Shown: in pieces, positions 3,770 to 10,300 of the stretch
How the letters are laid out: each line of letters starts with the position of its first letter
Position numbering within the stretch: position 1 is the first letter of the stretch
Origin: a virus
Direction: 5' to 3' (one strand)
DNA: 12,037 bases
UHGV virus genome: UHGV-0115279
Position numbers and translations under genes: made by a program
The notes under the pieces: model-generated
What the model was told of the DNA's origin: nothing
Seen by the model: the letters and a program-made list of their open reading frames with translations, nothing else
Database searches by the model: none

Positions 3770-4951
3770 TTACTCAGAGTCACCGGCATCAATCGTGTCG
3801 CCGCTTATAAAGTTAAGCCCGCCTTTTTTGGCCATTGTCAGCGTTACACGAGTGAAGTAATCAGCGCCGTTGCGTGGGTGCATATCGTTGATAGCCGAAC
3901 CCCACAGCGTGGTACGGTTGACCAGCGCCGGAGTGGTCGGATGCTGGAACGGGATGGCCGGGACAGCATCACCAGTCACGAAGCCTGCTTTACCCGGATT
4001 TTCATCACGGACGTAGCACAGCACATCCATCGAGCTGAACTGAATGTTCTCTGTCGTTAAGTTCTTACAAATACCAGCAGGTACTTCGTACACTTTCACG
4101 TTACCGAACAGGGTACCGATGTAGTGAACATACGGAGTCTGGATATAGTCTTCGGCTGACTGGAAGAAATCCTTCGGCAACTGTTTGAAGAAAGATGCTG
4201 CATCAGCACCAGCAAACATCCCCATCGCACCAGAAGATTTAACGCGCTCAATAATGTCGCGATATACAGTCTGGAATTTGCCACGAATGATGGTTGCCCA
4301 TACATCAAAGGACTGGTTAACCGGCAGAGCGATGTCAAAGGTGTCGGTCGCAAGAGTACGCCAGATCATGATGCGAAGACGCAGCATATCCTGTTCATGA
4401 GACAGGTATTCCTTCAGGGTGCGGAACTGTAGGGAACCCAGGTCCAGACCAAATTCACGCTGTGCTTCATACGCCGCCTGTACCGTGTGCTCAGCCGCGA
4501 TAACGAACTGACTTGGGAACAGGGTGTATTTCTTCATTTCGTGGTTGATCAGCGGGATCAGCTCAGGAGCGGCTTCAATATTGATTTCCGTCTCAATTGC
4601 GATCTCAGTGCCTTTATCCGGCGCTTTGGAGAACGACAGGGCAATCTGACCAATGTTGTAGTTCAGAGAGCAGGTAACAGTGATTTGCTCACCAGCAGCA
4701 TTAGTAAACGAGTGAAGTAGGCTGCCGGAACCGTTATCAACAACAGACTTAATACGGTTAACGTAGATGTTAGTGCGACCTTTTCGGATTGGTACATTCT
4801 GGCCTTCGAAGTCTTCCATCTTGAAGGTTGCGGTTTTGCTGGTGCCATCGGAGCTTGCCAGCAGCATAAGAACCAAAAGATGAACCTGCCACGTTAAAGA
4901 CTTCATAGATGTCGGACTGGTCACGCGTAACCGGAATGAAGGTACACGCAT
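3770..4951 (-). CDS. major head (capsid) protein, C-terminal ~365 codons; the upstream part appears to continue in another frame
   Basis: 393-aa ORF with no convincing RBS at its annotated ATG (4951) and a non-protein-like N-terminal ~30 aa, while the sequence from ..SSDGTSKTATFKMEDFEGQ onward looks like genuine protein. It overlaps the 4770..5432 ORF by 182 nt in a different frame. Confidence 0.6.
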   Translation of the reverse strand: MRVPSFRLRVTSPTSMKSLTWQVHLLVLMLLASSDGTSKTATFKMEDFEGQNVPIRKGRTNIYVNRIKSVVDNGSGSLLHSFTNAAGEQITVTCSLNYNIGQIALSFSKAPDKGTEIAIETEINIEAAPELIPLINHEMKKYTLFPSQFVIAAEHTVQAAYEAQREFGLDLGSLQFRTLKEYLSHEQDMLRLRIMIWRTLATDTFDIALPVNQSFDVWATIIRGKFQTVYRDIIERVKSSGAMGMFAGADAASFFKQLPKDFFQSAEDYIQTPYVHYIGTLFGNVKVYEVPAGICKNLTTENIQFSSMDVLCYVRDENPGKAGFVTGDAVPAIPFQHPTTPALVNRTTLWGSAINDMHPRNGADYFTRVTLTMAKKGGLNFISGDTIDAGDSE

Positions 4952-5432
4952 CAGCGGTAGCTGCCCCCAACTGAACAGGCAGGATCATCGCGAGGAATAA
5001 AGGCAGACGCATAACACCGTCAGAAACGCTCATCATCTCTGCTGCGACGGATTCCAGCATCGCTTTATTAGTGGCATCCATGCTATTGCGGGTGGACTCA
5101 ATCAGGCAGTTTTCCAGCGTCTGGTGGCAGGAGGCCAGAATTTCCGGACGCGGCATAGATTTATGTGCTGCGGCGTAGTCAGCCAGTGCACTTGCCCACG
5201 CTGTAGCGATTTGAGCGGTGGCATTATCAGAGATACCCGCAAAAACCGGGTCTTTACGTGCAGCTTCAAGGATAGATGCGGCACGCGCGGCATCATCTTT
5301 AATGAATTGGTTATCAGTACCGAACTGCGCAGTGCTTGCCCAGCCAAGCACAGCTTTAGAGCGTTTTGCGATATCTGCAATACGATTCTGGTATTCGCGT
5401 AAGTTACTCAATTTACTCTTCCTTAAACACAA
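4770..5432 (-). CDS. major head (capsid) protein, N-terminal portion (Ala-rich helical delta/scaffold-like domain), frame-shifted relative to 3770..4951
   Basis: The 220-aa ORF in the track begins at a TTG. The likely true start is the in-frame TTG at 5411..5409, preceded by AAGGAAG with 6-nt spacing. The N-terminal part is Ala-rich and protein-like; the last ~28 aa (KLRWHQQNRNLQDGRLRRPECTNPKRSH) look like out-of-frame read-through. Confidence 0.55.
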   Translation of the reverse strand: MCLRKSKLSNLREYQNRIADIAKRSKAVLGWASTAQFGTDNQFIKDDAARAASILEAARKDPVFAGISDNATAQIATAWASALADYAAAHKSMPRPEILASCHQTLENCLIESTRNSMDATNKAMLESVAAEMMSVSDGVMRLPLFLAMILPVQLGAATADACTFIPVTRDQSDIYEVFNVAGSSFGSYAAGKLRWHQQNRNLQDGRLRRPECTNPKRSH

Positions 5433-6654: not shown

Positions 6655-7851
6655 TCAGTTAGATCTGATAAATTCAATACGGTCAAAAACTGCTTTAGCA
6701 AAATCTTCCGCAGCAATTCGCGCGTTCTTCAATGCATCAGCACTACCAACATACGTTGCCGGGTTAGCTGAAATAACAGTGTCAAAAGACTCGCCGCAGC
6801 GTTCAAAACCGTCAAGGCGAGGGAGGACAACATCAAGCATATCCCCACCGAACACTTCTTTAGCCAGGCTATGGCAATACTTATGGTCTGCCTTGTTACT
6901 CAACTTGGACATAAAACCAATGTTAGTTGCAAGCTGACACTCGCAGCCTTCATCCGAAATGAGTTTCACCAACTCAGGAAGGCGGGCAACGTATTTAAGC
7001 GATGAGTGGAAATCAACCGTTGCAGGCGGCAGAGGTGTAAACAGTATATTGGCCGAGGCCAAAGCATTTTTCAGGAAGGCGTCAAGGTGAGGACCACTAT
7101 CAACGAGGATAAAGTCATAATCGCTCTTCAGCTTATCAATCACATTTTCTTTCAGGACTGCATGGATGTTCTGACCCGGTAGATGCTCATTGCACAGCTC
7201 TCTCCAATCGGATGCAATAAAGGCATCGTCAATCGACGCAGGCATAACGTCAACCCCAGGTACAACAGAAGGAACAATAAACTCCTCTAACAGCTCTTCA
7301 CGGCTTACATTCTGCAACATAGCCTGTGCAGATGTTGCGTTTACGATACCAATAGAGTGTTTATGGCTTAAAAACATCGTTGCTGAAGATTGCGGATCAA
7401 GGTCAATAACCAGAATCCTTAAATCTTCCATCAGAAGATGAGGATGAGCACGCATTGCATGCGCCAGAGAAACCGTCGATACAGTTTTTGACACACCGCC
7501 TTTAAGATTGGAGATGAAAATCACATACGCTTCGCTGTAGCGATCCCGGTATTTTGGCACTCCGCGATGTTCATATATGTCAATGATGTTCTGAATTGAC
7601 ATCGCATATTTCATTGAAGAGCCAGCAGGGCGTTTATCGAAAACATAACCCTTTTCTTCCATTTCACTTACGGCATAGTCAACGTTCGCACGAGTCAGTA
7701 GAGGCAATTTTGCCAGTGCCGCTTTCGCATAGACCTGGTAAAACTCGTTCGCGTGTAGCTCATCCTTTTGCAACTGTACTTGTTCAGTCAGAACATTGAG
7801 CATTCTATTTGCTCTTTGAGCAACCTTGTGAAGCTGGCTGGAATCACTCAT
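6655..7851 (-). CDS. parA: ParA partition ATPase (type Ia, with N-terminal autoregulatory DNA-binding extension)
   Basis: 398-aa ORF with ATG at 7851..7849 and an AAGGA SD. It has the deviant Walker A motif NLKGGVSKTVSTV and a ~100-aa N-terminal extension, and lies immediately upstream of parB. Length and sequence match P1 ParA as I recall it. Confidence 0.9.
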   Translation of the reverse strand: MSDSSQLHKVAQRANRMLNVLTEQVQLQKDELHANEFYQVYAKAALAKLPLLTRANVDYAVSEMEEKGYVFDKRPAGSSMKYAMSIQNIIDIYEHRGVPKYRDRYSEAYVIFISNLKGGVSKTVSTVSLAHAMRAHPHLLMEDLRILVIDLDPQSSATMFLSHKHSIGIVNATSAQAMLQNVSREELLEEFIVPSVVPGVDVMPASIDDAFIASDWRELCNEHLPGQNIHAVLKENVIDKLKSDYDFILVDSGPHLDAFLKNALASANILFTPLPPATVDFHSSLKYVARLPELVKLISDEGCECQLATNIGFMSKLSNKADHKYCHSLAKEVFGGDMLDVVLPRLDGFERCGESFDTVISANPATYVGSADALKNARIAAEDFAKAVFDRIEFIRSN

Positions 7852-7990
7852 CGAAAGCCATCCTTTATGCTGTATTTTTGAATTTAATTAAAAATGCTGC
7901 ATAAAATAATAATGTATGCGTAGATGCTTGTACATAGCATTCTCTGCATGTTTGGTTCATTTTGCACGATTGAGAGTTACAAGGAGGGCA
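7852..7990 (-). promoter_or_regulatory. par operon promoter/operator region
   Basis: AT-rich 140-bp leader between the upstream terminator and the parA ATG, containing imperfect palindromes (e.g. ATGCTTGTACATAGCAT at 7924..7940; tgcata..tatgcg at 7879..7899). These are plausible sites for ParA autorepression; exact -35/-10 hexamers not assigned. Confidence 0.5.
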
Positions 7991-8014
7991 CAAAAAAGCC
8001 CCGTTCAGGGGCAT
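7991..8014 (-). terminator. rho-independent terminator of the 269-aa gene, insulating the par promoter
   Basis: Minus-strand RNA has GCCCC-UGAAC-GGGGC followed by UUUUUUGUG, beginning 6 nt after the TAA stop of the 8020..8829 CDS. Confidence 0.7.
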
Positions 8015-8019
8015 CAGTG

Positions 8020-8829
8020 TTATTTGCTAAGAGCAGCGAATAATCGTTCGAAATCGATAGTATCTATAGCACGCGTAAGCGCCGGAAGTTCAGCCTCAAA
8101 GTACCCGTGTCGATCGTAAAAGAAGGGACCGAAGAGCGAGGCATGTTGGATTCTACTTCGCCCCAGCCCGGACACACAGTTAAGCCCATTACCGGCTAAA
8201 AGGCTAAAAAACTTCTCTGGATTATCGTGGTAAAGCTGGGAATCAATGGTGGCGGTTAACTCTTCCATAGGGAAGCACACCCGCCCTGTATCCCAGGGAT
8301 ATTTAGTCCGAAGCATAAACATTGCTTTCAGCAATTCACATTGAGCGCGGATCGCGTCCGGTTCATAGCCAGATATGGAGACATAAGCCACGTCCCTCAT
8401 TCCTGCGTCATCTTTGAAAGTCACGATAGAAGTAACATCCAGCTCTTTTTCGAAAGAGCAAGCAGCATCTACTGGACGCTGAAGTAAATCATTCGACTTA
8501 ATGCGCTCGAGAATCCCTCCCCACATATCATTTAGATATTCGATATGAGCCAAAACCTTATCAAGACACTCTCGTGTAAACCATTCAGTATGCCCGCCAC
8601 CGACGCTTTTCTCCCACGGCGCATTCCAGGGGAAAAAGGTTGCGTGTAAAGCCCGCTCAAGATTAACCATTGCCAAACGCGTACCACGATAGACCCGTGA
8701 AAGCGCAAAATCGGGACTCACTTGTAGCCCTTTAAACCGTGCCAATGGACCACATGAAATGCCGATTTTAAAAGTATCTCCGTTCTCTGGCACCAGAACG
8801 TAGAGGTAGTGTTGTTTCTCTTCTTGCAT
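8020..8829 (-). CDS. GIY-YIG / T5orf172-like domain protein with uncharacterised C-terminal domain (candidate accessory, defence or anti-defence gene)
   Basis: 269-aa ORF with ATG at 8829..8827, weak SD, TAA stop and its own intrinsic terminator. The N-terminal ~90 aa (HYLYVLVPENGDTFKIGIS...R...LERALHATFF...GGGHTEWF) follows the Y-x-Y-[VI]-L ... KIG-x-[ST] ... R ... E..LH ... TEWF pattern of the GIY-YIG-related T5orf172 (MUG113-like) family. Residues ~100-269 have no motif I recognise. Confidence 0.75.
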   Translation of the reverse strand: MQEEKQHYLYVLVPENGDTFKIGISCGPLARFKGLQVSPDFALSRVYRGTRLAMVNLERALHATFFPWNAPWEKSVGGGHTEWFTRECLDKVLAHIEYLNDMWGGILERIKSNDLLQRPVDAACSFEKELDVTSIVTFKDDAGMRDVAYVSISGYEPDAIRAQCELLKAMFMLRTKYPWDTGRVCFPMEELTATIDSQLYHDNPEKFFSLLAGNGLNCVSGLGRSRIQHASLFGPFFYDRHGYFEAELPALTRAIDTIDFERLFAALSK

Positions 8830-8863
8830 ATCAATACCACTGCTTGATGAGAACCGCGCAAAT

Positions 8864-9120
8864 GTTGACTATGCGCGAAGGTTAATGTGAATAGTTGACT
8901 ATGCGCGATGTGACTACAGTCAAAAGTTGACTGTAGTCGATTTAACTCCACCAAAGATCGACTATGTAAGATATTGTCGGGAGAAACGTTGACTATACGC
9001 GATGAAATGCCCCTAAAAGCCATCTCAATAGCGACTTGCAGAATATTGACGCCAGCAAAAATCCACCAGCGTCAACGAATGTCGCCTATAGTCAACTTCT
9101 CGCTATCGCATATAGTCAAT
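8864..9120. repeat. incA: incA-like iteron array downstream of repA (copy-number control locus)
   Basis: Multiple copies of a ~14-bp core GTTGACTATGCGCG: direct at 8864..8877, 8894..8907 and 8988..9001; inverted at 9083..9096 and 9107..9120; degenerate copies at 8958..8966 and about 9046..9076. A head-to-head pair forms a perfect 12-bp inverted repeat (8912..8923 / 8927..8938). The last copy abuts the repA stop codon. Confidence 0.8.
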
Positions 9121-9121
9121 A

Positions 9122-10006
9122 TTATGGATTGCGCTTATGGATCTGGAAGCCGATTTTCCTGCCGTTTTTTATCTCTGAAAATTTAAGATATTCAATAGCT
9201 TCCAAATCTTTCATGGCTTTTCTGATAACGCTATTTTGCACGCTAACGGATGATTTGAGATTAAGCCTCGCTCTAAGGCGCTCAATGCTGACAGGTGCCG
9301 GGTTGGCGGGTAGAGCCTCAAAGAATGTATACAGTACCTTGGCCGTCTCTTTGCGCCCTAGTTTATCCAGCATCTTCAGCTTCAGGATTCGCTTATAGTC
9401 AACATAGTAAAGTTCAGATAGCTGTTTCTGCGGCTGGATCTCGATAACATCAAGCTCGGTATTCAGGCTGCTATATGCCAACAAGTTGACGTTAATGTTA
9501 TTGAGATGACCTTTTGCCGCCGGGAAGCGGAATTTGACAACTGTCTGCTGAATGCGTGTCAGAGAGTCATCAATACTTTTACGGAACGCCTTTGAAAGGC
9601 GCTTACGTGGATAGCCGCATCGATCGGCAAACTCGGAGAATGGCAGGGTGATTATGCCGTCATCATCAGGTGCGTAGTCAAACAACGCGGAGGTTATGCC
9701 CACCCACACCTTAAAATCAGTATCCATATCCAGGCGTGGACCATGAATTTCAATTCCCTCATAGCCTTCCTGCTCAACAATTTTGAGGCTTGATAGTTCT
9801 TCAGTTGCGTTCGTTGTGTTTGTTGTAACTGACGATCCGCGACGTAGCGCCACATTGGTAGATTTTAAGGTTGGCACAAACACACCTAAGCGCAACAAAG
9901 CGATGGGTTGTATAGTGCTGTTGTTATTGGGCTTCAGGCTGTGGATTTCTCCTGTATTTCCTGCAACTTCTTCAACGCTAAGGAAGCCTTTACTTTCTTC
10001 CGGCAT
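9122..10006 (-). CDS. repA: RepA iteron-binding replication initiator (RepA/RepE family)
   Basis: ORF 9122..10042 in the track starts at a TTG; the most plausible start is the ATG at 10006..10004 (MPEESKGF..), with GGAG 8-12 nt upstream, giving 295 aa. Blocks IQPIALLRLGVFVP, IHGPRLDMDTDFKVWVGI, FSEFADRCGYPRKRL and LYTFFEALPANPAPVSIERLRARL resemble the P1 RepA / F RepE initiator family, and the gene is flanked by iteron arrays on both sides. Confidence 0.85.
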   Translation of the reverse strand: MPEESKGFLSVEEVAGNTGEIHSLKPNNNSTIQPIALLRLGVFVPTLKSTNVALRRGSSVTTNTTNATEELSSLKIVEQEGYEGIEIHGPRLDMDTDFKVWVGITSALFDYAPDDDGIITLPFSEFADRCGYPRKRLSKAFRKSIDDSLTRIQQTVVKFRFPAAKGHLNNINVNLLAYSSLNTELDVIEIQPQKQLSELYYVDYKRILKLKMLDKLGRKETAKVLYTFFEALPANPAPVSIERLRARLNLKSSVSVQNSVIRKAMKDLEAIEYLKFSEIKNGRKIGFQIHKRNP

Positions 10007-10050
10007 CACGGTTTCTCCATGTGTGGCGCGGCCTGACGTCAATTTGGATG

Positions 10051-10300
10051 GCTGTTATCAACAGCTGTGAATATTCAGACTCTAAAATCGCTTACAGTCA
10101 ATGTTTCTGTCGCGTATAGTCAACAATAAATCGCGTGCAGTCAACAATAAATCGTGCACAGTCAACATAAAATCGCGTATAGTCAATGTTGATCCCATTT
10201 CAGGCCAGTAATGACGCGGCTTACAGCGATCCGGGATCTTCTTTGGATCTTCCTAGGTTCTCTTTAGGATCTGTTTATTGGATCTATGCTGTGGATAAGT
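10051..10300. other. oriR: oriR-like plasmid origin: DnaA boxes, clustered GATC sites and five iterons
   Basis: Five iterons at 21-bp spacing (about 10089, 10111, 10132, 10153, 10174; unit CGCGTATAGTCAACA + AT-rich spacer). Six GATC sites within 95 bp (10191, 10228, 10235, 10246, 10268, 10281; four as GGATCT). A perfect DnaA box TGTGGATAA sits at 10290..10298 and an 8/9 DnaA box TTATCAACA at 10055..10063, inside the palindrome GCTGTT-ATC-AACAGC (10051..10065). Located directly upstream of repA. Confidence 0.8.

Follow-up and report, generated by a model that had tools for sequence, protein, structure and literature searches.

In phage T4, I-TevI and the Seg proteins consist of an N-terminal GIY-YIG domain followed by a C-terminal targeting region, and the free-standing seg genes lie between conserved genes and bring about the co-conversion of flanking markers. 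Proteins of the T5orf172 type are a major class of phage homing endonucleases, encoded beside essential genes and at the boundaries of genetic exchange (PMC10448857). One T5orf172 nuclease, Odn (Gp88) of phage ICP1, destroys the origin of PLE (PMC8263062). Here, we describe a T5orf172/GIY-YIG-family nuclease gene in UHGV virus genome UHGV-0115279, of which a stretch of 12,037 nucleotides (the window) was analyzed. The window represents a p0111-type P1-like phage-plasmid of the RCS47, SJ46, JL22, phi456, and pO111_2 kind, and the gene is situated between the replicon and the par genes of this element. A preliminary description of the window had proposed a 269-amino-acid (aa) open reading frame (ORF) at this position, and the ORF proved to be real. 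The best explanation for its product is an active-type GIY-YIG (T5orf172) nuclease joined to a lineage-specific targeting domain.

Profile hidden Markov model (HMM) analysis matched residues 8 to 85 to Pfam T5orf172 (PF10544) with 26.9 bits (gathering score, 20), and the same match is precomputed on cluster representatives of the family; matches to MUG113 and Tox-URI2 were subthreshold. Structure prediction suggests a GIY-YIG alpha/beta fold for the N-terminal domain. The T5orf172/GIY-YIG assignment of the preliminary description thus held in both HMM and structure checks. Eight catalytic-type residues (Y8, Y10, K21, G23, R31, E58, H62, and E82), among them the Tyr pair, Arg, and metal-binding Glu of the superfamily as assigned by motif, are invariant in all four full-length lineages of the family; at 25 to 44% overall identity, this invariance argues for selection on the nuclease site. 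In PHROGs, the protein belongs to phrog_2876, a family of unknown function, with an additional weak endonuclease match. No PADLOC-DB v2 family was retrieved at E values up to 1, and NCBIfam gave no match. The GC content of the gene (47.4%) is that of the window (47.2%), so composition gave no signal of a recent foreign origin. Similarity to the T4 GIY-YIG homing endonucleases is limited to superfamily motifs, no NUMOD or helix-turn-helix modules were detected, and the whole protein is acidic (pI 5.5). SLX1 and UPF0213 (URI-type) nucleases are only 11 to 18% identical, carry another C-terminal domain (a RING/PHD finger in SLX1), and belong to eukaryotic and bacterial housekeeping, unlike the present gene.

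The preliminary description rightly recognized no motif in the C-terminal region, which is specific to this family; a local HMM built from it found no relatives among ∼150 homologues of the N-terminal domain. In each of the four lineages, the region is acidic, with a pI of ∼5.1 and a net charge between −4 and −9. The predicted structure is winged-helix-like; in fold comparisons, the top matches were RepE (4.7), pPS10 RepA (4.5), and RctB (4.5), followed by other winged-helix proteins. Foldseek, run separately, ranked the same Rep WH1 domains at the top, although not significantly (E values of 0.047 to 1, TM scores of 0.35 to 0.44). We therefore treat the predicted likeness to initiator WH1 domains as a lead and not as a finding. 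It is doubtful that the domain binds DNA, and no known DNA-binding Pfam or zinc finger was matched within it. Only one Cys residue is invariant across the family, which indicates that the zinc finger modules usual for T5orf172 homing endonucleases are missing. Derivation of the domain from RepA, as in Odn, was considered and rejected, as hhalign against a P1-like RepA profile returned a probability of 0.2% (E value, 0.35). The charge of the C-terminal regions in more distant relatives was mixed and hence uninformative as a discriminator.

Compared with the T5orf172 homing genes of ICP1, T5-like, and other phages (Barth et al. 2023, PMC10448857), the present gene has in common the catalytic family PF10544, a stand-alone intergenic place by essential genes and at an exchange boundary, presence or absence between relatives, and a modular build of nuclease plus variable second domain. 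It differs in its nuclease-first order, in the lack of CapR/DUF723/DUF4397 zinc finger repeats, in an acidic C-terminal domain unique to P1-like plasmids, and in being single copy per genome. Moreover, it occupies the plasmid maintenance region of a temperate phage-plasmid, whereas those genes reside in structural and replisome operons of lytic phages. Odn (Barth et al. 2021, PMC8263062) may be compared with the present protein in that a T5orf172 nuclease is joined to a second domain, which in the present protein is weakly predicted to resemble the DNA-binding or dimerization domain of an initiator, and in being genetically linked to modular RepA-iteron replicons that relatives exchange.

Alignment of the window with P1 (blastn) defined the genetic setting. 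Homology to P1 ends at position 7953, just upstream of the par promoter (Ppar), and restarts at 10204 inside oriR, just before the GATC cluster and DnaA box. In between, a 2,250-bp module (the gene, incA-like iterons, RepA, and five origin iterons) takes the place of the 1,491-bp incA-repA-incC segment of P1, while ParA and ParB are 99.7% identical to their P1 counterparts. The nuclease gene forms the par-proximal edge of the module, 66 bp from the breakpoint. As proposed in the preliminary description, P1 holds no such gene: its annotation gives incA and then Ppar with no coding sequence between them, and no homologue was found in P1 or P7 records. A sensitive tblastn search of the 170-bp incA-Ppar spacer of P1 with four family members returned only noise, and a gene remnant there was rejected.

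All full-length relatives share this setting. Two protein searches, one k-mer seeded (5.8 billion sequences) and one exhaustive with HMMER (1.84 billion representatives), yielded only four full-length lineages, namely, the cluster of the window, P0004 (44% identity), P0009 (27%), and P0011 (29%); ∼150 further matches were confined to the N-terminal ∼100 aa. The four lineages all occur in P1-like elements with the order repA, iterons, gene, and parA, and three RepA types accompany them: the p0111 type (the window and locus L004), an IncY-like type (L005, 83% identical to P1 RepA), and a third type (L007, 43 to 48% identical to the others). L004 and L005 belong to a second backbone clade (94 to 98.6% DNA identity) and differ by an equivalent swap of iterons, repA, iterons, and gene with the same boundaries. 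A Salmonella plasmid (L020) lacks the gene, and its RepA and ParA are 90% and 97% identical, respectively, to those of L005, in which the gene is present. The indel between these two plasmids is ∼945 bp, comprises the ORF with 23 bp upstream and 40 bp downstream, and is situated between the last incA iteron and the sequence upstream of Ppar; it is a single-gene presence/absence difference. The earlier view of the gene as single-gene cargo inserted into a P1 backbone is only partly right: a single-gene difference exists between L005 and L020, but in the window the breakpoints enclose the whole replicon module (RepA, 42% identical to that of P1), and the gene is therefore no lone insertion into the P1 replicon.

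The joint between incA and Ppar is also the exchange point of par modules (IncY plasmids L018 and L019, and L007), and IncY replicons are paired with P1-type or P7-type par (ParA, 401 aa; ParB, 321 aa). Identical flanking proteins occur in IncY and p0111 plasmids, for example, WP_001281116.1 (UpfA) and WP_000067710.1 (gp23).

The gene evolves faster than its neighbors. Between the window and L004, protein identity is 82% for the sheath protein, 84% for RepA, 89% for ParA, and 67% for ParB, versus 44% for the nuclease (63% in the N-terminal domain and 33% in the C-terminal domain). Among nine E. coli-clade alleles, the ratio of nonsynonymous to synonymous polymorphism (pN/pS) was 0.28 for the nuclease gene, 0.03 for repA, 0.00 for parA, 0.07 for parB, and 0.11 for upfA. 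Between L005 and L007, RepA is 43% and the gene product 40% identical, and the N-terminal domain is the sole part of the modules that can still be aligned at the DNA level. This divergence, which is not proportional to that of repA, suggests that the gene may to some extent have moved or recombined relative to repA, as judged from only four lineages with a saturated C-terminal domain. Inactivated alleles have arisen independently: the gene has a nonsense codon at position 112 in the p0111 reference plasmid pO111_2 (L014, NC_013370.1, 3501-4310) and two, at 93 and 103, in L013 (NZ_CP062884.1, 3501-4310), while others carry an IS1 insertion (H162) or a frameshift (H134). Truncated forms appear as separate protein clusters, and the ORF is intact in most of ∼400 plasmids. 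Taken together, the recurrent inactivation and the pN/pS value indicate that constraint on the gene is weak and that the plasmid can be maintained without it, and the natural knockouts count against an essential replication role. Nevertheless, lineages with backbones of only ∼72% identity have all kept the gene, and its catalytic-type residues are invariant among them.

In complete E. coli genomes, the gene was found in 412 of 5,426 (∼1 in 13), as a single copy and nearly always on a plasmid, and p0111-type repA (at least 90% identity) was found in 409. At a ratio of ∼1:1, the gene is a fixed part of the p0111-type module. IncY (P1/P7) repA/incA was present in 359 of these genomes; in the IncY examples inspected, the interval from incA to parA is empty with par of either the P1 or the P7 type. 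Across ∼770 E. coli P1-like plasmids (IncY examples inspected), the site holds the nuclease family or nothing and is therefore no hot spot for mixed cargo. PLSDB contains ∼400 plasmids with the gene, all at 90% aa identity or higher. In the phage collection, homologues were restricted to 12 p0111-type records, and a scan of GTDB genomes added one locus with the same allele. A 93.6-kb plasmid (L003, CP042620.1, 5063-5947) encodes a p0111-type RepA (85% aa identity) and has no nuclease gene; its backbone is different and distantly P1 related (sheath, 48% identical), with a tail gene ∼570 bp past repA. The p0111 replicon type therefore extends beyond P1-like backbones.

More distant relatives share the N-terminal domain and are of similar length. 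P0020 (L026, 5001-5981) lies between terS and terL, the genes for the two terminase subunits of a prophage, a classic position for a free-standing homing gene. P0019 (L024, 1931-2758) directly follows a TrfA-type initiator gene, at a distance of 230 bp. P0023 (L025, 3431-5813) is found with a ParA gene, an HTH_36 Rep-like gene, and a second T5orf172 gene; P0021 is found with a ParB_N gene. P0016 is located on a conjugative plasmid, P0013 shares an island with Mrr-type and WYL genes, and the contexts of P0024, P0014, and P0018 were uninformative. A recurring theme among these relatives is that of a stand-alone cassette between conserved core genes of mobile elements.

Within the window (see the table below), the 5′ end of the gene abuts the incA-like iterons, in agreement with the preliminary description. 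The iteron consensus ATCGCGYATAGTCAAC has 12 matches (0.18 expected), of which 5 are at the origin, 6 lie between the repA stop codon and the nuclease ATG, and 1 is within the repA coding sequence (TTCGCTTATAGTCAAC, 9388-9403, 2 mismatches). In all lineages, the ATG follows the last iteron by no more than 35 bp. An iteron copy 3′ of the gene, which would correspond to an insertion into incA, was rejected because the motif at ∼7957-7972 exceeds 3 mismatches from the consensus. The interval from the last iteron to the ATG contains no convincing sigma-70 promoter; a single match on the minus strand lies inside the ORF, and the number of promoter sites equals the shuffle expectation. Expression via read-through from repA across incA is thus the likeliest arrangement. 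Because no separate promoter was found in this interval, an influence of RepA on expression of the gene is plausible.

Features of the window around the nuclease gene, in order of position
Feature	Position	Strand	Remarks
parA	6655..7851	−	99.7% aa identity to P1 ParA; right-hand conserved flank
Ppar promoter	7906..7934	−	−10/−35 as in P1; within P1-homologous flank
p0111-type replicon module	7954..10203	.	In place of P1 incA-repA-incC (blastn versus P1)
Intrinsic-terminator-like hairpin and U-run	7988..8012	−	Directly 3′ of the stop codon of the nuclease gene
T5orf172/GIY-YIG-family nuclease gene	8020..8829	−	269 aa; stop codon 8020-8022; PHROG 2876
C-terminal family-specific domain, residues 105-269	8023..8517	−	Acidic; predicted winged-helix-like fold, weakly nearest WH1 of iteron initiators
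N-terminal catalytic domain, residues 1 to ∼104	8518..8829	−	Predicted GIY-YIG fold; catalytic-type residues invariant
incA-like iteron array	8864..9120		Four iterons in one orientation (8864-9003), two in the other (9081-9120)
repA	9122..10006	−	p0111-type iteron initiator; 294 aa; 42% identical to P1 RepA, 84% to L004 RepA
Origin iterons	10087..10187	+	Five, 21-bp spacing; incC equivalent
oriR part common with P1	10204..10305		Five GATC sites and DnaA box TGTGGATAA (∼10290-10298)

The terminator placed at the 3′ end of the gene by the preliminary description also stood up to analysis: a GCCCC-loop-GGGGC hairpin followed by a U-run (7998-8012) has a free energy of −11.9 kcal/mol (z score, −2.6). 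When positions 7954-8019 were compared with positions 5993-6060 of L007, the terminator and ∼40 bp beyond it (TGCC[C/T]TCCT...TCAA.CGTGCAA) were conserved. The two loci are of different rep and par types, and their nuclease proteins share only 29% identity; the conserved 3′ flank hints at mosaicism near this end of the gene.

As for the function of the gene, we tentatively favor, over a random cargo insertion, a selfish or competition nuclease that resembles a free-standing homing endonuclease and is encoded at the edge of the replicon module, a reading that we hold with less than even confidence. In such a process, a P1-like plasmid carrying the gene would meet a relative that lacks it or has a rival replicon, and the nuclease would cut the rival within the segment that differs from the carrier plasmid, which in P1 is spacer-incA-repA-incC. 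Repair by recombination with the carrier would then copy the gene, and the linked repA-iteron module would be co-converted with it. The module would be included in its entirety because the closest stretches of common homology are Ppar on one side and, on the other, the part of oriR with the GATC sites and DnaA box. Several observations speak for this reading, in which the nuclease activity, its target, and homing or co-conversion are inferred. The T5orf172 match is above threshold, the predicted fold is GIY-YIG, and catalytic-type residues are invariant. The gene lies near the swap breakpoint, and an equivalent swap distinguishes L004 from L005; all four lineages use the same site, a gene-sized indel separates L005 from L020, and P1 retains no remnant. 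Its history appears partly decoupled from that of repA, constraint is weak, and decay is recurrent. Relatives of the N-terminal domain are found at terS/terL, after a TrfA initiator gene, and with ParA or ParB genes, and the site in E. coli P1-like plasmids holds the nuclease family or nothing, with no mixed cargo. The T5orf172 homing genes at exchange boundaries provide a precedent (PMC10448857).

Several observations weigh against homing. The C-terminal domain is acidic and lacks the CapR-type zinc finger modules usual in T5orf172 homing genes (PMC10448857), and its putative recognition helix lacks the basic character typical of the DNA-binding domain of a homing endonuclease. The family is single copy and confined to one site in P1-like elements, with copies that are deeply diverged and not recently spread. 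Module edges just outside the iterons would also be expected from functional constraint alone, since RepA must travel with its iterons. Finally, fixation of the gene in the p0111 lineage is essentially complete, and its pN/pS of 0.28 points to some purifying selection, which would also fit a gene useful to the plasmid. An exclusion or defense nuclease, a possibility raised in the preliminary description, would be of benefit to the lysogen or plasmid: the variable C-terminal domain would sense an invader protein or DNA and free the N-terminal nuclease to act in an abortive-infection or exclusion manner. A nuclease fused to a fast-evolving, acidic domain that does not look DNA binding has the architecture for this role, and its prophage-plasmid carrier holds it in a maintenance region expressed in lysogeny. 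Sporadic loss and pseudogenization are typical of costly defense genes, and one distant relative adjoins Mrr-type and WYL genes. We nevertheless consider defense rather unlikely, as no PADLOC model was matched, there is no partner gene, the site never holds alternative defense cargo, and the family occurs at a single syntenic site and only in P1-like elements.

The predicted WH1-like fold allows for a role closer to replication, in which the C-terminal domain would either attach to iterons or associate with the RepA WH1 domain and so bring the nuclease to iteron-RepA complexes. These could be those of the plasmid itself, resulting in copy number or handcuffing control, or those of a rival, resulting in origin destruction. 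Odn is a precedent for such an origin-directed nuclease (PMC8263062), but we judge a replicon accessory factor or Odn-like nuclease to be improbable here. A replicon-linked “drive” nuclease may also be envisaged as a plasmid counterpart of ICP1 Odn, with a Rep-WH1-like domain recognizing rival iterons or iteron-bound RepA and the rival being either eliminated or converted to the repA-iteron module of the carrier. While this proposal is decidedly speculative and carries a low probability, it would, if true, explain the IncY/p0111 replicon swaps among near-identical P1-like backbones. The least likely of the alternatives is a decaying passenger without present function, the remnant of an early insertion that happens to be linked to an essential replicon. 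Relaxed constraint relative to the neighboring genes and recurring inactivation would agree with decay, but pN/pS is well below 1, the ORF is intact in most plasmids, and the catalytic-type residues are invariant across the diverged backbones.

Elsewhere in the window, gene 23 (major head protein) has a 65-bp deletion at ∼4858-4866 (ORFs 3770..4951 and 4770..5432) relative to P1, P7, RCS47, SJ46, phi456, and all 21 matching phage records. As 65 is not a multiple of 3, gene 23 is split; either the prophage-plasmid is defective or the deletion is an assembly error.

Database labels for the nuclease gene vary among hypothetical, GIY-YIG nuclease, and “terminase small subunit.” The last of these is attached to a feature beneath the gene in phi456 (OR339795.1), and several records lack a coding sequence at this position. 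Plasmids of the p0111 type that carry the gene are typed as “IncHI1B” by PLSDB/MOB-suite. The gene was previously recorded as an unknown gene accompanying repA′ (PMC9603915). We found no literature on its function; the sole mention is “unknown gene gp57” in the JL22 paper. What was already known is thus the GIY-YIG/T5orf172 database annotation and one paper's unknown gene. New here are the family-level synteny over three replicon types, the place of the gene in a swapped module, the gene-sized indel, the fast and weakly constrained evolution, and the unusual C-terminal domain.

One practical consequence concerns annotation, as the labels of the gene are inconsistent across records. P1-like phage-plasmids are common vehicles of extended-spectrum β-lactamase and other resistance genes. 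If the gene encodes a defense or exclusion nuclease, it would represent a widespread single-gene system that is absent from current defense catalogues. If it encodes a homing or competition nuclease, it would provide a mechanism for the repeated exchange of replicon modules and for competition between IncY and p0111 plasmids, and the homing-type nucleases of the T5orf172 family would extend from lytic phages to plasmid replicons.
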